From positions 13,252 through 77,251 of the forward strand of contig JAFVYZ010000060.1 in the NCBI GenBank assembly GCA_017508425.1: DNA of 64,000 bases, read 5' to 3'. The notes below the pieces were generated by a model. That model saw only the letters and a list, made by a program, of their open reading frames with translations. It did not search any database and had not been told where the DNA came from. The translations under genes were made by a program, and so were the position numbers. Positions 32,998-58,517 of the stretch are shown one piece after another (position 1 is the first letter of the stretch; each line of letters opens with the position of its first letter). This stretch comes from Clostridia bacterium. GTDB lineage: Bacteria; Bacillota; Clostridia; Oscillospirales; CAG-272.

Positions 32998-33609
32998 TTA
33001 CCACCTTTTTTCAACCGAAACGCAGTTGCCCGACGCCACACTGCCCGAAAAGGAGACAGTGTACGAAAGTCCCTTTGCAATTCTAATACCATAAACAGTA
33101 TAACCGATCCCGTCCTCATAATGTGCGTTCACGGAAATTGTCATTGACACAATTTGCGCATTTCCCGTCGTAGCGGAGTCGGTAGCCTCATTGTCCGCTT
33201 GCTCGCGCAGCATCTCGGGAGGCAACACGTACGGAGATACGGTAATGCCGATCGCCTCTCCCAAATCCCGACCCGTGACCGCATCGAACAAATGAGTGCC
33301 CTCGACGGGCGCCGCGCCAAGATCCCCGTTTACGTCGTAAAATTCAATCGTATAAAGAATCTCTTGGACTTGCCCCTTGTCTGTGTTCCACATTTCACCA
33401 AGCGGTGTAAAAACCAGCAAAAGACCTGCCAGGATCGCAAGAGCAAACAAAGCAAGAACAGCATTGACCGCTACATACAGTGAACGGGGATATTCCCTGT
33501 CAACGGCCTTGCTCTCCGACAGGGCTCGGTAAGCTACTCCGCCTCGGACGCCTTGCCCATTTTTGAGATTGGCATGATGAAATGTGCCTTTACTGCGACG
33601 CTTCGCCAT
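32998..33609 (-). CDS. Single-pass membrane protein of unknown function, distant paralog of the downstream gene (possibly DUF4330-like)
   Basis: 203 aa with one TM (LYVAVNAVLALFALAILAGLLLVF). Strong RBS AGGAGGGG. The start overlaps the upstream gene by 20 nt. Confidence 0.6.
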   Translation of the reverse strand: MAKRRSKGTFHHANLKNGQGVRGGVAYRALSESKAVDREYPRSLYVAVNAVLALFALAILAGLLLVFTPLGEMWNTDKGQVQEILYTIEFYDVNGDLGAAPVEGTHLFDAVTGRDLGEAIGITVSPYVLPPEMLREQADNEATDSATTGNAQIVSMTISVNAHYEDGIGYTVYGIRIAKGLSYTVSFSGSVASGNCVSVEKRW

Positions 33610-35599
33610 GCGCTACCCCTCCTTTTTTGGCCTTGCGCGGTGCGCGCACGGCATACTCGATCTCGGCAACGGGACGACCGTAATGCTCATCCTCCGAAAA
33701 AGTTTGTCGGCGTAACCGATCATAACGCATCGCCGCTGCAACAAGTGCCGCAGCGCAAAAGAACGCCGAAAGCGCGGCAAGATCGTACCAAACGTAGCAG
33801 AAAAATCCAAGAAACACGAGTGCCGACACCAGCACGATACCGATATGTGCAAACAGCGACTTCCCATGATCTCTTGACGTGGAAAGAACGGAAAAGCAGT
33901 TTTGCAAAAGTAACAAGAAAAAGAGCGCGCAAACCACGACGCCGACCAAGCCGTAATTCACAAGCAGGACCTCAAAGAAATGGTACGCCTCCATCCCAAA
34001 CGGGGTGGCGAGATCGCCAAAATAGGGATAAAGGGCCTCGAGTCCACGGTGTCCTGTGCCAAAAATCAGGCGGCGTACGGCGCTTGTCTTTGAGAACATC
34101 CCTTCACCGTTCCCGGCAAAGAGGCGCGATAGGGTATCGCGTCCCACCCTGCGAAGCGATAGGAGAGCGGGATCCGAGAAATCGCGGAAGAATCCCAAAA
34201 TTCGCTGCCGAATGTCTTTTTTCAGTATAAACAGTGAGCCACTGACGGCACCACCCGTAAGAAGCAAAAACGGCATACTGCGATATTCATATACCAGCAA
34301 AAATACCACAAGGATCAAGATCAATGCCAAAAGCACCGCGGAATTAAAGGTCAAGAGGACGCCTGCCGCAAGGCAAAATGCCACGAATATGGGCAGTGCG
34401 CGCCGACGCGAAGATGTAAACGCGATCGAGGGGAGCACAAACGCAAAGGCAATTACCAAATAATAAGCAAACGCATTTCGATCGGCAAAGCCGGCCGTCA
34501 CCACAGGGCCGAAGTCCGCGATATTGGAAAGAGTGGCCCCATCGGTATTCAGCATCGCATACACAAGCTGTCCTATACCAAAGGCTGCGGCAAAAAAGGC
34601 AGAGCATGTAAAGGCAATGCGAGTAACCGAAAGCCAGTGCGGCGTGGATAAAATATTAACGGCAATCAAATACGTTAAGACGATCAGCAGCTCAAGCAAC
34701 ACATCACGCCAAACCGCACCGGTTGCCGGAGTTCTCGCCGAAAGAGCGAAAAGAAGCAAGAAGAAAAGCACGGGAATATCCTGCAATTCAAGGCGGAACA
34801 CACGGTTGCCTCGTAGCAGTTTTCCAACGTAGCCAAATACCATAAAGGCAAAGCAAGTCAACGTAATGGCGTCACTGCCGACAATCAATTTGGAAAACGG
34901 CAGGAAAAGAAGCGCCAATAAAAATCCGACCTCGGGCACCGACAGGATCATCAAGACGCAAGAAAGCGTTCCCAAAATAGCAATAAGCGACAACGGCATG
35001 ACCAAAAGGCCAAGTGCCGCTACTGCGATCGCAAGCAATGCCGCAGCTCCAAAATGCTGCTTACCACGCGTTTTTACACCTCGTATCACATCATCGTGCA
35101 GGCCAAAAACACCAAACATAAGGCCGCCTAAGAAGGATCTGTGGCGCAACATAGCACCAACCGAATGGTCGGAAAAAAGCAGCAGCACACCGACAAAAAG
35201 CACAACGCCGCCCGCGATCAAATGGTCAAATGTAACCCCGATCGAAATAAACGCCAAAAGCGTGGCTCCGTACAGTGCGATCCAAGCGGCACCGAGCACC
35301 GTGAAGAAAAATCCGACTGTGCGAAGGTTGCTTTCCACCAATGCCGCAACGCACCAACGCCTTGCTCGAGAAAAGATATTTTGCTCCATGGCGCAAGCAA
35401 TGGCTCGGCGGATGGTATAATGATGCTTACGGCCGTTCGCCGCCCTTGCGGCGCGGTGCTTACCGACGCGACAAATCCTCTCGTTAAGGGGCCCGTAGGA
35501 GGAAAAAAGCTTTCCGATAAAGCTACCGATGATCAAGCCGTATATAAAGCGGCTAAATCGCGCAAAAAAACGAAGAACCGCATTTTTTTCTTTTTTCAT
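33590..35599 (-). CDS. Large polytopic membrane protein, O-antigen ligase / Wzy_C-like
   Basis: 669 aa with at least 12 TM segments and an O-antigen-ligase-like central loop region. RBS GGGAGGTAGGAG. It starts 35 nt after the trmD stop. Confidence 0.55.
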   Translation of the reverse strand: MKKEKNAVLRFFARFSRFIYGLIIGSFIGKLFSSYGPLNERICRVGKHRAARAANGRKHHYTIRRAIACAMEQNIFSRARRWCVAALVESNLRTVGFFFTVLGAAWIALYGATLLAFISIGVTFDHLIAGGVVLFVGVLLLFSDHSVGAMLRHRSFLGGLMFGVFGLHDDVIRGVKTRGKQHFGAAALLAIAVAALGLLVMPLSLIAILGTLSCVLMILSVPEVGFLLALLFLPFSKLIVGSDAITLTCFAFMVFGYVGKLLRGNRVFRLELQDIPVLFFLLLFALSARTPATGAVWRDVLLELLIVLTYLIAVNILSTPHWLSVTRIAFTCSAFFAAAFGIGQLVYAMLNTDGATLSNIADFGPVVTAGFADRNAFAYYLVIAFAFVLPSIAFTSSRRRALPIFVAFCLAAGVLLTFNSAVLLALILILVVFLLVYEYRSMPFLLLTGGAVSGSLFILKKDIRQRILGFFRDFSDPALLSLRRVGRDTLSRLFAGNGEGMFSKTSAVRRLIFGTGHRGLEALYPYFGDLATPFGMEAYHFFEVLLVNYGLVGVVVCALFFLLLLQNCFSVLSTSRDHGKSLFAHIGIVLVSALVFLGFFCYVWYDLAALSAFFCAAALVAAAMRYDRLRRQTFSEDEHYGRPVAEIEYAVRAPRKAKKGGVAHGEASQ

Positions 35600-37362: not shown

Positions 37363-37818
37363 ATGAAAAGCAAAAAAAAGCCGTCAAAAACACGAAAAAG
37401 CATCGGCGAAGAGCCCTCTTTGCAATCGCTCGGCAAAAGCGTGTTATTGGCATTGCCCATCACAGTCGCATTCGCGCTCCTGTTGATGCTGCCCGTTACA
37501 GCCCTATTGCTCAAAACCGGGAATCCCAACGCCTATCATACCGGAGCGGGTCTGGCGATCCTTTACCTTGCCACACTTTTGGGCGGCACCATTACCACAC
37601 GCCTACATCACCGCCGCACACCGCTTTTATGCGGACTGGCCATGGGAGGAGCCCTGCTCTTACTCCTTTTGGTGATTTCTTTGATCTTGCCGGGCAACGC
37701 GCACACATACAGCACCGCGTTGCAGGTCGGGCTACACGCCTTGCTCCTGCCAACGGCACTCCTCGGTTCGTATCTCGGTGCAAAAGAAAGATCCGTGCCG
37801 CGTCGGCACCGAAAATAA
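37363..37818 (+). CDS. Small membrane protein (TIGR04086-like, often found after yajC in Clostridia)
   Basis: 151 aa with 4 TM segments and a basic N-terminus. The family assignment is from memory of typical gene context. Confidence 0.5.
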   Translation: MKSKKKPSKTRKSIGEEPSLQSLGKSVLLALPITVAFALLLMLPVTALLLKTGNPNAYHTGAGLAILYLATLLGGTITTRLHHRRTPLLCGLAMGGALLLLLLVISLILPGNAHTYSTALQVGLHALLLPTALLGSYLGAKERSVPRRHRK

Positions 37819-37860
37819 AAAAGATCCGCAAATGCAAAACGCATTTGCGGATCTTTTTTG
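37817..37860. terminator. Bidirectional terminator between the membrane-protein gene and EEP copy 1
   Basis: AAGATCCGCAAATGC-AAAAC-GCATTTGCGGATCTT (15-bp stem) with A and T runs. Confidence 0.8.
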
Positions 37861-37861
37861 A

Positions 37862-38719
37862 TTACAGCTCAACGTCAATATAGACGGGGGCGTGATCGGA
37901 TAAGTAAAGATAATAGTCGGGCATATAACGGTCAAAGCGCTTAATTGCCCCTTCAGGAAAATCCTTTACGATAATATGATCAAAGGTATGCAGGTAATCA
38001 AGCCCCTCGTGCCACTTACCGGGACCGCGCGTAGTGAGTGAATTAAAGCCGCCGTCCTCAATCGCGTAGTCAGTAGCAAGATCATGAGCGTGAAGATAGC
38101 CGCCCTCCCACAATACGGGGATCAACGCCTCGGAATCCGACCCGCCGTTGAGATCACCGACGAGAACCGCCGGAATATCCCCGTAGGCCTTGCGATACTT
38201 CTCGATCAGCTCCTTCGCCATACGAAGCTGGTAAGCGCGCGCTTCGTTCGAGCCGGGATAATACTTCGGGTGCTCGGGGTTGCCGCGCTTGAACCAAAGA
38301 TGCGTGGTAAGAAAAATGAACATTTTCCCGCTTTCCTTAGAGCGAAACACCGCAAGCGTTGCAGCATAGCCCTTGGTAGGGTTGTATTTCCTGGGCAGTC
38401 CCTCGATCTCGTTGGGGTAGCAAAAATACTCGCTGTCCACAAGATCCAGCTTTTCAGGCCGGTATATAATCGGAGTAGCATTCCCCCAGATCATCACGTA
38501 GCCGGGGAGCCCCTCTTCGGCGGCATACCAGTTAAAATACTGTTGCATTTCGGGTGTGACCTCCTGCCCGCCCACCACGTCGGGCATAAGATCCTTGAAG
38601 ACCTGAATATGTCCGTGCATACGGGTAGCGGCCGAGGAATCAAGACCTAATTCCTGCCATTCGGGGCGGTTGTCACTCCAGTACCACTGATTTTGGCTCA
38701 TCAAACGAAGCTTGCTCAT
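37862..38719 (-). CDS. Endonuclease/exonuclease/phosphatase (EEP) family protein, tandem copy 1 of 3
   Basis: 285 aa. EEP catalytic motifs are present: LMSQN, GGQE, TTHL, VGDLN, SDHAPV. No signal peptide. Confidence 0.8.
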   Translation of the reverse strand: MSKLRLMSQNQWYWSDNRPEWQELGLDSSAATRMHGHIQVFKDLMPDVVGGQEVTPEMQQYFNWYAAEEGLPGYVMIWGNATPIIYRPEKLDLVDSEYFCYPNEIEGLPRKYNPTKGYAATLAVFRSKESGKMFIFLTTHLWFKRGNPEHPKYYPGSNEARAYQLRMAKELIEKYRKAYGDIPAVLVGDLNGGSDSEALIPVLWEGGYLHAHDLATDYAIEDGGFNSLTTRGPGKWHEGLDYLHTFDHIIVKDFPEGAIKRFDRYMPDYYLYLSDHAPVYIDVEL

Positions 38720-38734
38720 GATAACTTCCTGAAA

Positions 38735-39592
38735 TTACAGCTCAACGTCAATATAGACGGGGGCGTGATCGGATAAGTAAAGATAATAGTCGGGCATATA
38801 GCGGTCAAAGCGCTTGATCGAGCCCTCGGGGAAATCCTTAACGACGATGTGGTCGTAGGCGTTGCACAAATAATGCAGGTGGCGCCATTGGCCCGGGCCA
38901 CCGACGCCCATGGTATTGTATCCGTCGTCCTCGGTGGCAAAGTCGGTAGCAAGGTCGTGCGCGTGGGTATAGCCGTCCTCGTACATCACGGGAAGAAGAT
39001 CCTCGTAATCCGACCCGGCGTTGAGGTCACCCACGTAAACCGAGGGGATATTTCCGTACGTGCGGCGGTACTTCTCGATCAGCTCCTTGGCCATACGAAG
39101 CTGGTAAGCACGGGCCTCGTTGGAGCCGGGATAATAATTCGGGTGCGCAGGGTTGCCGCGCTTGAACCACAGGTGCGTGGTGAGGAAGATAAACATCTTA
39201 CCATCCTCCTTGGTGCGGAACACGCCCACAGTAGCACCCTTACTGCTGATATCGTTGTAGGTTTTCGGCAACCCCTCGATCTCCTTGGGGTAACGGACGT
39301 ATTCCGCCGCCACGAGGTCAAGCCGGTCGGTGCGGTAGAAAATGGGCGTGTAGTTGCCCCAGATCATCGCGTAGCCGTCAAGGCCATCCTCAGCCGCGTA
39401 CCAATGAAAGTACTGCTGCATTTCGGGCGTGATCTCCTGCCCGCCCACAACGTCGGGCATCAGGTCCTTAAACACCTGAATGTGACCGTGCATACGGTGG
39501 GCGGCCGAGGAATCAAGGCCCAGCGCCTGCCACTCGGGGCGGTTGTCGCTCCAGTACCACTGGTTTTGGCTCATTAAGCGAAGCTTACTCAT
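38735..39592 (-). CDS. EEP family protein, tandem copy 2 of 3 (the most divergent)
   Basis: 285 aa with the same motif set. By eye about 70-75% identical to copies 1 and 3. Confidence 0.8.
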   Translation of the reverse strand: MSKLRLMSQNQWYWSDNRPEWQALGLDSSAAHRMHGHIQVFKDLMPDVVGGQEITPEMQQYFHWYAAEDGLDGYAMIWGNYTPIFYRTDRLDLVAAEYVRYPKEIEGLPKTYNDISSKGATVGVFRTKEDGKMFIFLTTHLWFKRGNPAHPNYYPGSNEARAYQLRMAKELIEKYRRTYGNIPSVYVGDLNAGSDYEDLLPVMYEDGYTHAHDLATDFATEDDGYNTMGVGGPGQWRHLHYLCNAYDHIVVKDFPEGSIKRFDRYMPDYYLYLSDHAPVYIDVEL

Positions 39593-39610
39593 GCGATACT
39601 CCTGCTAAAA

Positions 39611-40468
39611 TCAAAGCTCTACGTCAATATAGACGGGGGCGTGATCGGAAAGCTTCAGATAATAATCGGGCATATAACGGTCAAAGCGCTTAATAGAGTC
39701 CTTGGGAAAATCCTTGACAATAATGTGGTCAAAGGTGTGCAAATAATCAAGACCCGTATACCACTTGCCGGGGCCGCGCGTAGTGAGCGTATTAAAGCCG
39801 CCATCCTCGATCGCGTAGTCGGTGGCAAGATCGTGCGCGTGCTCGTAGCCCCCCTCCCACATCACGGGGATCAAGGCCTCAGAATCCGATCCGCCGTTAA
39901 GATCACCGACGAGAACCACGGGAATATCGCCGTGCTTACGGCGGTATTTTTCAATGAGCTCCTTATCCATGCGAAGCTGGAAGGCGCGCGCCTCATTCGA
40001 GCCCGGGCAATACTTCGGGTGCTCGGGGTTGCCGCGCTTAAACCACAGGTGTGTGGTGAGGAAAATGAACAGCTTGCCCGTTTCCTTCACACGGAACACC
40101 GCCAAATTTGCGCCCTTGCTGCCTGAATCATTATATCTTTTAGGCAATCCCTCAATTTCCGTGGGGAAGCGCAGATACTCGGTATCGACCACCTCAAGCT
40201 TTTCGGTGCGGTAAATAATGGGGGTATAGTTGCCCCAGATCATCGCGTAGCCGGGAAGGCCCTCCTCGGCGGCGTACCAGTTGAAATACTGTTGCATTTC
40301 GGGCGTGATCTCCTGGCCGCCCACGACGTCGGGCATCAGGTCCTTAAAGACCTGAATATGACCGTGCATACGGGTGGCGGCAGAGGAATCAAGCCCCAGC
40401 TCCTGCCATTCGGGGCGATTGTCGCTCCAATACCATTGATTTTGGCTCATCAAACGAAGCTTACTCAT
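39611..40468 (-). CDS. EEP family protein, tandem copy 3 of 3
   Basis: 285 aa from ATG 40468 (RBS AAGGAGA). The track's 33-aa N-terminal extension is not supported. By eye about 85% identical to copy 1. Confidence 0.8.
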   Translation of the reverse strand: MSKLRLMSQNQWYWSDNRPEWQELGLDSSAATRMHGHIQVFKDLMPDVVGGQEITPEMQQYFNWYAAEEGLPGYAMIWGNYTPIIYRTEKLEVVDTEYLRFPTEIEGLPKRYNDSGSKGANLAVFRVKETGKLFIFLTTHLWFKRGNPEHPKYCPGSNEARAFQLRMDKELIEKYRRKHGDIPVVLVGDLNGGSDSEALIPVMWEGGYEHAHDLATDYAIEDGGFNTLTTRGPGKWYTGLDYLHTFDHIIVKDFPKDSIKRFDRYMPDYYLKLSDHAPVYIDVEL

Positions 40469-40487: not shown

Positions 40488-41306
40488 TTAGTATTTTTGA
40501 TAAATAAAAATATCCATTTGTGCCTCGCAGGAAAGCGCGTGGCAGGCGGCAAGGCGCTCATGTCCATCTTTTGAGGTACGATAGTAGTAGGGGGTCATGG
40601 CGAACAAGTTTTTTACCGCATCGCCCTCAAGCGCCATTTGAAAGGAAAGCGTTTCGCCGGAAAGCTCGCACATCGCGCGCGGCAGATCGGCACGCGGCTC
40701 GTTTTCCTTTGCCACATCGTAAAGCACGCGCTTGAGTGCCCCAAGGTGCTCTCGCCCCGCGCCCGCGGCGATCAAAATGCCACCGGGCTTCAGCACGCGC
40801 AAGAATTCCTCCTCGCAAATAGGGGCAAACAGGCTTACCACCGCGTCAACAGAGGCATCCTGCAGGGGCAACGTATAAATACCCGCTACTCCGAAAAAGG
40901 CATCAAGCCCCTCCCTTTTCGCGCGCTTTGCAGCGGTGCGCACACCGCGCTTGGAAAGATCAAAGCCAAGTGTGGAAAAGCCGGCGCTTGCCAGTTTGCA
41001 GGTATAATAGCCCTCGCCGCAGCCCGCATCGACCACGGTGCCGCCTTGCGGCACCAGCTCCGCCAAAAGCTCGGTTACACGCGCGGCAAACGGCGTATAA
41101 TGGCCGCCGTCAAGAAAGCTTGTGCGCGCGGCGATCAGCGCCGCGTCGTCGCCCCCGCCCGACGCCCTTGCCGTAGCAAGATTGACGTAGCCATCAGCGG
41201 CAAAATCAAAGCAGTGTCGCTTTTCGCCAAGGCAAAAAAGGCTATTTCCCTCTTTGGTTGTTTTCGCACCGCAAACAGGGCACCGTACGTGTTCACTCCA
41301 CCACAT
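40488..41306 (-). CDS. 23S rRNA (guanine-N1)-methyltransferase, RlmA family
   Basis: 272 aa from ATG 41306. An N-terminal Zn-finger (CPVCG...C...HC), then GYVNL and the SAM motif VVDAGCGEGYY. Collinear with E. coli RlmA. Confidence 0.8.
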   Translation of the reverse strand: MWWSEHVRCPVCGAKTTKEGNSLFCLGEKRHCFDFAADGYVNLATARASGGGDDAALIAARTSFLDGGHYTPFAARVTELLAELVPQGGTVVDAGCGEGYYTCKLASAGFSTLGFDLSKRGVRTAAKRAKREGLDAFFGVAGIYTLPLQDASVDAVVSLFAPICEEEFLRVLKPGGILIAAGAGREHLGALKRVLYDVAKENEPRADLPRAMCELSGETLSFQMALEGDAVKNLFAMTPYYYRTSKDGHERLAACHALSCEAQMDIFIYQKY

Positions 41307-41315
41307 AACATCCTC

Positions 41316-41344
41316 AAAAAAGCCCCTCGCTTTGCGCGAGGGGC
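41316..41344 (-). terminator. Intrinsic terminator hairpin downstream of the histidine kinase and immediately upstream of the RlmA-like RBS
   Basis: Minus strand reads GCCCCTCGC-GCAAA-GCGAGGGGC followed by TTTTTT, then GAGGATGTT-ATG. Confidence 0.75.
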
Positions 41345-58441: not shown

Positions 58442-58517
58442 GCTGCTATAGCTCAGTCGGTAGAGCACGTCATTGGTAATGACGAGGTCATCGGTCCGAA
58501 TCCGATTAGCAGCTCCA
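58442..58517 (+). tRNA. tRNA-Thr (anticodon GGU) with encoded CCA
   Basis: Hand-folded cloverleaf: acceptor GCTGCTA/TAGCAGC, D arm GCTC-AGTCGGTA-GAGC, anticodon arm CGTCA-TTGGTAA-TGACG, variable loop AGGTC, T arm ATCGG-TCCGAAT-CCGAT, then discriminator T and CCA. Confidence 0.9.

Follow-up and report, generated by a model that had tools for sequence, protein, structure and literature searches.

Three tandem EEP-superfamily paralogs in a gut Clostridia bacterium form a strain-variable array with putative specificity modules

Why would a bacterium keep three versions of one enzyme side by side, all with the same catalytic residues and with different sequences in internal segments? A locus of a Clostridia bacterium (assembly GCA_017508425.1, contig JAFVYZ010000060.1, 93.7 kb long) raises this question. 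We analysed a stretch of 64,000 nucleotides around it, hereafter the window. On the minus strand lie three head-to-tail genes of exactly 858 nt (285 amino acids and a stop codon) encoding proteins of the EEP (endonuclease/exonuclease/phosphatase) superfamily, transcribed in the order copy 3 (39611-40468; MBR7112846.1, IKC75_08040), copy 2 (38735-39592; MBR7112845.1, IKC75_08035) and copy 1 (37862-38719; MBR7112844.1, IKC75_08030). NCBI annotation (PGAP) calls all three "hypothetical protein". Taken as a whole, the data are probably best explained, and we say so with moderate confidence, by three functional and co-transcribed cytoplasmic phosphoesterases that carry different specificity modules, lie in an array reshuffled between strains, and act on sugar or metabolite phosphates.

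The spacers between the genes measure 18 nt (39593-39610, minus strand), with the AGGAG ribosome-binding site of copy 2, and 15 nt (38720-38734, minus strand), with the AGGAAG site of copy 1; the repeat periods of the array are 873 and 876 nt. A Shine-Dalgarno-like AGGAG/AGGAA precedes all three start codons by 5-7 nt. An earlier note on this DNA had described the sizes, spacers and ribosome-binding sites, which the open reading frames and a reading of the sequence confirm; the strand had gone unstated. A mechanical list of open reading frames also holds a 318-aa version of copy 3, from an in-frame upstream ATG at 40567 that overlaps the 3' end of the preceding gene, rlmA; homologs and the ribosome-binding site put the true start at 40468.

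Are the three proteins EEP enzymes, and of which kind? Residues N10, E53, H140, D189, N191, D247-H248 and D275-H276 are found in all three copies and are invariant across an alignment of 48 family members, which bears out the claim that every copy keeps the full EEP catalytic set. The catalytic Asn is already residue 10, so that there is no room for a signal peptide and the proteins are predicted to be cytoplasmic, as had been proposed. Their match to Pfam is borderline. The PF03372 scores of copies 1, 2 and 3 are 20.3, 16.8 and 25.8 bits for a gathering cut-off of 24.5, so copy 3 alone lies above it, and about two thirds of the listed family members have a precomputed match to this family. 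In NCBIfam the three copies gave a single sub-threshold match, to the ExeM/NucH domain (17-19 bits vs a cut-off of 300), and matched neither Xth/ExoA (Exodeoxyribonuclease III/AP endonuclease) nor any other nuclease equivalog. A model of copy 3 made with AlphaFold2 (AF2) from the 48-sequence alignment has a pLDDT of 95.2 and a pTM of 0.93, and a Foldseek search of the PDB with this model returned 159 matches at E <=1e-3, the 50 best of which are without exception EEP enzymes (probability 1.0). This supports the assignment to the EEP fold, a four-layer alpha/beta sandwich. The list is headed by BVU_0621 (3g6s, E 1e-17) and BT3783 (3mpr and 4c1r, E 1e-16 to 2e-15), followed by TDP2, nocturnin, the Enterococcus protein 3l1w and CNOT6L, and identities in the whole list are 15-22% with TM-scores of 0.6-0.77. 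A profile search of PDB sequences gave a similar order, with 3g6s at 6.8e-12, 4c1r (BT3783) at 1.7e-5 over residues 78-251, and then 3l1w, PDE12 and TDP2 at 0.0035-0.007. In the profile comparison TDP2 aligns over the N-terminal 85 residues alone (E 0.007-0.03), and in Foldseek it has an E of ~1e-13 at 16-20% identity. In Pfam, NCBIfam, the PDB profile search and Foldseek the copies fell into no well-characterised EEP subfamily, and they have family-specific invariant residues, H210-A-H212-D213 and D114-x-x-S117-K118. The searches and the model thus indicate bona fide EEP enzymes that appear to lie outside every characterised subfamily.

Is the array real? Every sequence that we used comes from short-read metagenome assemblies, and contigs break in the array or within 200 nt of it in five of our loci (L001, L004, L070, L071 and L072). 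One might therefore suspect that a repeat was collapsed or duplicated, or that strains were joined into a chimera. Yet the copies are 76-81% identical in DNA and the longest exact runs they share are 66, 31 and 29 nt, the 66-nt run being well below the final assembler k-mers (k141 in the name of the L001 contig). The order copy 3, copy 2, copy 1 of the window is repeated in L004, a 4.7-kb contig 100% identical to it, and a three-copy array was assembled independently in L001 (GCA_045657305.1); in all, arrays come from separate assemblies of several samples. All reading frames are intact and each has a proper ribosome-binding site. An assembly duplication, which the earlier note had named as one possible refutation of its reading, is accordingly extremely unlikely. 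The contig breaks fit strain heterogeneity, with co-existing array haplotypes breaking the assembly graphs.

How old are the copies, and what has kept them apart? They share 77-86% of their amino acids and 76-81% of their nucleotides, copy 2 being the most divergent (77-78% amino-acid identity to copies 1 and 3). By the Nei-Gojobori method the synonymous divergence between copies (dS) is 1.1-1.4 and the ratio of non-synonymous to synonymous divergence (dN/dS) is 0.08-0.13. A recent duplication is ruled out by such dS values. Hence the "tandem triplication" of the earlier note holds for the three copies in tandem, but the event lies far back: with dS above 1 the paralogs are old, and how many there are, in which order and of which types differs from strain to strain and from species to species. 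Among copies, differences touch only 3 of the first 60 residues and 4 of the last 35. Over codons 1-60 the proportion of synonymous differences (pS) is 0.41-0.59 vs 0.007-0.027 for non-synonymous ones (pN), and over codons 251-285 pS is 0.36-0.46. Because synonymous divergence stays high at the ends, their conservation points to purifying selection and not to copying or homogenisation, in agreement with what had been proposed; gene conversion as the source of the conserved ends is ruled out by their pS of 0.36-0.59.

Non-synonymous differences peak in two places. The first peak covers codons 85-126, with pN of 0.19-0.26 in all pairs, and region 1 (~81-130) holds 26 of the 74 positions that vary among copies. 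The second covers codons 191-250, with pN of 0.28 between copy 2 and either other copy and 0.054 between copies 1 and 3. Of the two divergent segments claimed beforehand, the first stands; the second must be redrawn as 192-250 and is strongly divergent only for copy 2. In the model the loop 101-118 leads into strand 119-127, which is hairpinned to strand 133-140 ending in the catalytic H140. Region 2 runs from N191 to D247, and its residues 237-246 immediately precede the catalytic D247-H248. Judging from this strand topology both variable segments would lie on the active-site face, which is consistent with the suggestion that the divergent segments are on the substrate side. In TDP2, nocturnin and CCR4-type enzymes the segment between D-x-N and the last D-H shapes substrate recognition, and variable region 2 of the copies corresponds to this segment.

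Do the segments behave as modules? We typed region 1 (residues 72-126) and region 2 (190-250) in 16 close-clade genes and in proteins P0001-P0008. In region 1, type A is found in copy 1, L001_g2, L003_g2 and L072_g1, type B in copy 3 and all single-copy orthologs, and the divergent type C in copy 2, with additional variants in P0003 and P0007. In region 2, type X is found in copies 1 and 3 and the single-copy orthologs, and type Y in copy 2, L001_g3, L003_g2 and L071_g2. Copies 1, 2 and 3 are thus A+X, C+Y and B+X, and the combinations A+Y and B+Y are also seen. Since the outgroup genes L008_e1 and L009_e1 are Y-like, Y would be the ancestral type; copy 2 then appears to retain an ancestral-like region 2 and copy 1 to be derived in both variable regions. 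Indels are absent among the close-clade full-length genes that were compared, and P0003 and P0007 differ by one residue.

Recombination between genes is evident in several ways. Among 14 genes with 312 informative sites, the pairwise homoplasy index (PHI) is 0.526 vs a permutation mean of 0.646 (sd 0.006), and none of 1000 permutations gave a value as low. Nearest-neighbour scans in 90-nt windows give mosaic ancestry among array genes. Over residues 91-120 the DNA of copy 1 matches that of L003_g2 at 98% identity; in region 2 the two genes have a pN of 0.25, and the flanks of L003 are only 71-76% identical to those of the window genome. These results show that the divergence is modular and recombinational, with segment types that reassort between genes and between species. 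A diversity-generating retroelement or shufflon was considered and rejected: the types are discrete and conserved, all copies are direct, and there is no adjacent reverse transcriptase or invertase gene.

Might the copies nevertheless be redundant, kept for gene dosage only, their variable segments being surface loops that drift under relaxed constraint? The positions that differ among copies are indeed more variable family-wide (entropy 1.46 vs 1.00, p = 3e-4), and pN/pS is below 1 everywhere. But 24 of these positions are >=80% conserved in 39 distant family members. Copy 1 has replaced D114, S117 and K118, which are 97-100% conserved in these members, by P, G and Y. Type X has a substitution at A245 (100% conserved), just ahead of the catalytic D247, and copy 2 retains both A245 and Y225. 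Such changes at positions that are 85-100% conserved in the distant members, among them D114, S117, K118, A245 and Y225, look like a functional shift and not mere loop drift. Each type is moreover conserved across strains and species (dN/dS 0-0.06), the A-type module is near-identical in a species with 71-76% identical flanks, and copies that were redundant should, at dS above 1, have decayed or become homogenised by now. We therefore hold mere redundancy to be improbable.

How stable is the array within a species? Relative to the window, L001 is 99-100% identical over htrA, the response-regulator gene, the histidine kinase gene and most of rlmA, and 99% identical past the array. Inside the array, identity is 95% in the first slot and 63-87% in slots 2 and 3. 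The order in L001 is an allele of copy 3, a copy-1-type gene (94% DNA identity) and a fourth type, whose identity to copy 2 is only 80%. In a third strain, L072 (RlmA 98% identical at the amino-acid level), rlmA is followed directly by a copy-1-type gene, which makes three array orders within one species. The second array gene of L072 (L072:1752-1859) starts with MSKLRLMSQNQWACRVNRPEW, vs the otherwise invariant QNQWYWSDNRPEW of the close clade, and the contig ends after 36 codons. Copy 2 is alone in its 90%-identity cluster among ~15 billion proteins, its closest relative being L001_g3 at 80% identity, and is apparently a rare allele or type of the array.

Synonymous divergence between strains is 0.012 in htrA, 0.033 in the response regulator, 0.030 in the kinase and 0.042-0.053 in rlmA, vs 0.20-0.28 for EEP alleles of the same type, whose dN/dS is 0-0.06 (0.04-0.06 for the copy 1 alleles of L001 and L072). 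Same-type EEP alleles thus have 5-20 times more synonymous divergence than the flanks, with near-zero amino-acid change. Between copy 3 and its L001 allele there are 41 synonymous and no non-synonymous differences, where the four flanks together have 28 and 13 (Fisher p = 8e-5). Because of this excess of synonymous divergence, together with the reshuffling between strains inside genomes that are 99% identical, the locus has the appearance of a hotspot of recombination or of balancing selection. Acquisition of the whole array by horizontal transfer was ruled out: its GC content (0.52-0.55) is no different from that of the neighbouring DNA.

In sister species, whose flanks are 70-79% identical, the same position holds one B+X copy in eight loci (L002, L005-L007 and L073-L076) and at least two copies in L003 and L071. 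Copy 3, of type B+X, would then be the "core" type that corresponds to the single copy of the sister species. Between these species EEP proteins are 86-89% identical in amino acids vs 71-74% for RlmA. In the survey of copy number and neighbours called for by the earlier note, the number varies between strains and species and no neighbour is kept family-wide.

An island so variable between 99%-identical flanks, with divergent alleles of near-zero dN, modules that reassort across species and a copy 2 unique at 90% identity, is also what one might expect of a genetic-conflict system, anti-phage or inter-strain, whose modules are kept by frequency-dependent selection against a variable foreign target, e.g. 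phage DNA with modifications or a terminal-protein-DNA linkage. Bonds between protein and nucleic acid are unlinked by TDP2-like enzymes, which would suit such a role. Yet none of the three copies matched PADLOC (0 families at E <=0.1) or PHROGs, and the viral structure library gave generic EEP matches only. Partner genes, toxin-immunity pairs, mobile-element genes and compositional anomalies were not found in the window. The locus lies in conserved synteny among housekeeping genes, and sister species carry one strongly conserved copy, as a housekeeping gene would be. We thus think it improbable that this is a conflict locus. A more specific idea, which we regard as a long shot, is that the array is a population library of specificity modules directed at a variable phosphodiester-linked molecule of foreign or competitor origin, modules reassorting within and between species to track the target. 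Targets might be, e.g., the phage terminal-protein-DNA bond, cleaved as by TDP2, phage DNA that is hypermodified, or some variable phosphoglycan. If this were true, a kind of defence or conflict locus not recognised so far, modular and made of single genes, would have been built on an EEP scaffold.

We favour instead diversified phosphoesterases, which would work as follows. The copies would be functional cytoplasmic Mg2+-dependent phosphoesterases of a clade so far confined to uncultured gut Clostridia, co-transcribed with the upstream RlmA-type gene up to a strong terminator past copy 1. Segments ~81-126 and ~192-250 would act as specificity modules on a shared catalytic core, so that one cell would have three enzymes that share their chemistry but prefer different substrates. 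Each of these old paralogs is held by strong purifying selection. Unequal crossing-over would produce arrays of 1-3 copies, and segmental gene conversion with lateral exchange of modules would give different sets to strains of one species. Gene anatomy, fold, catalytic residues, selection regime, mosaicism and the variation between strains are shown by the data; that the segments face the substrate, that the copies diversified for different substrates, and the class of substrate are inferred.

Which substrates could these be? The nearest characterised relative is BT3783 of Bacteroides thetaiotaomicron, an exported Mg2+-dependent mannose-6-phosphatase that acts on yeast mannan and phosphorylated N-glycans, whose mature protein starts at residue 27 and whose gene lies in a mannan polysaccharide utilisation locus (PMC4978465). 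BT3783 and the uncharacterised BVU_0621 share with the window proteins the EEP fold, the Mg2+ site, the catalytic residue set and an origin in gut bacteria, with TM-scores of 0.65-0.75 to the copy 3 model (BT3783: 0.71-0.75 at 19% identity), but are only 19-22% identical to them. Unlike BT3783, the window proteins have no signal peptide and no glycan-utilisation neighbours, and they have the additional H210-A-H212-D213 and D114-x-x-S117-K118 motifs. Around the array lie rlmA, a two-component system, htrA, yajC and rimM/trmD, not a polysaccharide utilisation locus. Nor is BT3783 known as a tandem, strain-variable array.

A second set of relatives is the nearest outgroup. Secreted or lipoprotein EEP proteins of 430-730 aa (e.g. 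P0132, P0140, P0146) form a sister clade, with E-values of 1e-50 to 1e-34 over the full EEP domain in an exhaustive profile search. In common with the copies they have RxMxxNxW, S-K-(G/S)-Y, HLWW, SDH-x-P and a motif containing CSA, close to which an Arg is conserved. They differ by a signal or lipobox sequence, by the lack of the HAHD motif and by an extra N-terminal domain of 150-330 aa, for which no Pfam or PDB sequence match was found; they too are uncharacterised. In addition, the neighbours of distant family members lean towards carbohydrate or redox functions (FAD_oxidored, GFO_IDH_MocA, PfkB, MFS, AraC, rhamnosidase). In view of the closest relative with a known activity, of the secretion of the sister clade and of this faint carbohydrate context, we tentatively prefer small sugar or metabolite phosphates, or phospho-glycan fragments taken up from outside, over chromosomal DNA as the class of substrates.

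Might the copies rather process or repair nucleic-acid ends, in the way of TDP2 (5'-tyrosyl unlinking), CCR4/PDE12 (3' exonuclease) or nocturnin/ANGEL (nucleotide phosphatase), with paralogs that recognise different adducts or ends? TDP2, nocturnin and CNOT6L/PDE12 have the same fold and catalytic residues, are of similar size and are soluble cytoplasmic or nuclear proteins; they differ in being eukaryotic, in acting on DNA or RNA ends or NADP(H), and in an identity of 15-20%. Matches to TDP2, nocturnin, CNOT6L and PDE12 are significant (Foldseek ~1e-13, TM-score 0.6-0.77; profile 0.005-0.03), but in both searches TDP2-type matches rank under the Bacteroides phosphatase group. The proteins are cytoplasmic and the genes are co-transcribed with that of a 23S rRNA methyltransferase, but the linkage to rlmA exists only in the close clade. 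In favour of this reading, the EEP proteins are very strongly conserved, beyond the level of neighbouring housekeeping genes; NCBIfam gave no Xth/ExoIII or nuclease equivalog and only the ExeM/NucH match far under its cut-off. The sister clade is secreted or lipid-anchored, a better fit to polymer or glycan substrates, and no signs of nucleic-acid binding elements or of a repair context were seen. We find nucleic-acid processing rather unlikely, though a serious rival.

Several observations weigh against the preference for diversified sugar or metabolite phosphatases. The similarity to BT3783 remains remote (19-20% identity, TM-score ~0.7), with TDP2, nocturnin and CCR4 ranking close behind. 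The window has no sugar-utilisation genes beside the array, and the sole co-transcribed gene is an rRNA methyltransferase, if anything a hint at RNA. The analysis of conserved neighbours in 62 loci found no universal partner gene. Where the variable residues lie with respect to the metal site is deduced from the strand topology of the model. In the variable segments pN/pS is ~0.3, below 1 as everywhere else, and dS is saturated (pS ~0.74). Of the dN/dS analysis suggested beforehand, pairwise whole-gene values (0.08-0.13) could be obtained; positive selection in the variable segments is beyond judgement because of this saturation. Finally, all sequences derive from metagenome assemblies.

How general is such an array? 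An exhaustive search with a hidden Markov model in 1.84 billion representative proteins (E <=1e-3) found 2074 relatives, only 70 of them at E <=1e-30. In GTDB species representatives there are 62 family loci, all from uncultured gut metagenome-assembled genomes (MAGs), mostly of ruminants, in Oscillospiraceae, Lachnospiraceae, Acutalibacteraceae, Faecousia, Ruminococcus and Roseburia. A scan of metagenome contigs gave 4 loci only, with 1 close relative, which is truncated. Nine other family loci have tandem arrays of 2-3 divergent paralogs each. In a neighbour-joining tree the window copies are monophyletic with the close clade, and the window array would for this reason be a lineage-specific expansion. 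The arrays of L015 and L019 (e1-e3), L011, L017, and L008 and L009 (e2) mix deep paralog clades. Tandem sets of differentiated paralogs thus seem to recur in the family. Two homologs in Faecousia MAGs are of another kind: L064:6001-6403 and L066:3006-3405 match query residues 3-56 and 214-285, and 4-62 and 213-285, respectively, the two stretches being nearly joined and the central ~150 residues, including H140 and D189/N191, gone. These could be pseudogenes or products of deletion.

Gut bacteria are known for tandem arrays of catabolic paralogs that have diversified, e.g. glycoside-hydrolase or SusC/D expansions. The analogy extends to head-to-tail paralogs with a conserved core, divergent substrate-side loops and strain-variable content. 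The window array is unlike them in encoding phosphoesterases and in a divergence concentrated in two reassorting fixed-length modules. A literature search found no published work on this EEP clade; it returned the BT3783 paper and the unrelated Bacteroides EEP DNase BT3563.

Outside the close clade, to which the rlmA-EEP linkage is restricted, neighbours of distant members include GFO_IDH_MocA proteins, PfkB-type kinases, MFS sugar transporters, AraC/PocR regulators, rhamnosidase and ABC exporters. The most frequent are a PF12831 FAD oxidoreductase (7 loci) and a pyridoxamine kinase (4 loci), and these look like lineage synteny rather than a pathway. The PF12831 FAD-dependent oxidoreductase (~560-590 aa, E to 9e-87) is directly upstream of the EEP gene in L028, L030, L031, L036 and L055, with a gap of ~10-15 nt in the first four; in L038 and L039, 736-aa relatives lie downstream on the opposite strand. 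The pyridoxamine kinase (NF005491, 257 bits, above the cut-off) is 110-270 nt upstream in L009, L010, L019 and L023. The first EEP genes of these four loci belong to three different deep clades, and spoIIIAA lies divergent upstream in 3 of the 4. This linkage may be synteny or a functional link, e.g. to a B6-vitamer phosphatase.

Within the window, rlmA (40488-41306, minus strand) encodes an RlmA-type 23S rRNA (guanine-N1) methyltransferase (NCBIfam NF008300, E 9e-58, below the cut-off), and its orthologs carry the Pfam Zn_ribbon_RlmA and Methyltransf domains. Its stop lies 19 nt ahead of copy 3, and it is the first gene of the transcription unit of the copies. The stop codon of copy 1 is followed directly by a perfect hairpin of 19 bp between an A-run and a T-run, a strong intrinsic terminator at 37817-37859 (minus strand; terminator scan, RNA fold -31.9 kcal/mol, z -7.3) that can serve both directions, also for the convergent DUF3792/TIGR04086 gene. 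In the gap between the histidine kinase gene and rlmA a second terminator hairpin (41322-41344, minus strand; 9-bp stem with 8 GC pairs, then a T-run) appears to split a unit of htrA, response-regulator and kinase genes from the rlmA-EEP unit. Because these two terminators bound them, rlmA, copy 3, copy 2 and copy 1 are read as one transcription unit.

The hairpin at 41344-41322 ends ~16 nt ahead of the rlmA start, and its T-run merges into a GAGGA ribosome-binding site. Just upstream of it are an extended -10-like TGt-TACAAT at 41366-41358 and a weak -35 TTGCTT at 41386-41381. A transcript from this promoter-like element would have the terminator hairpin as its 5' leader. The hairpin could act in attenuation of the rRNA-methyltransferase gene or could simply be the terminator of the kinase operon.

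Upstream of rlmA come htrA and the genes of the response regulator and histidine kinase; downstream of the array are the convergent TIGR04086/DUF3792 membrane-protein gene and yajC, then rimM and trmD. Downstream of trmD, a gene at 33590-35599 (minus strand) encodes a 669-aa polytopic membrane protein whose L076 ortholog has the Pfam domain Wzy_C, of the O-antigen ligase/polymerase-like kind. Rfam gave nothing for the array genes or spacers, and its sole match at gathering threshold in the window is a tRNA gene (58442-58514).

What does the array mean for these bacteria? Current knowledge is not overturned by it. New here is a well-conserved and wholly uncharacterised branch of a known superfamily, modular and strain-variable, and not surprising in kind. 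The hosts of the family are abundant uncultured gut Clostridia of livestock and wild ruminants, in which the array is usable as a strain marker. With three enzymes, and more in other strains, that have an identical catalytic core and two swappable fixed-length segments, it is also a natural experiment for mapping how EEP enzymes choose their substrates. The reshuffling at the level of strains hints that the substrate differs between niches, and if this substrate were a phosphorylated glycan or cofactor, these enzymes would supply a cytoplasmic step that gut carbohydrate or vitamin metabolism has so far been missing.

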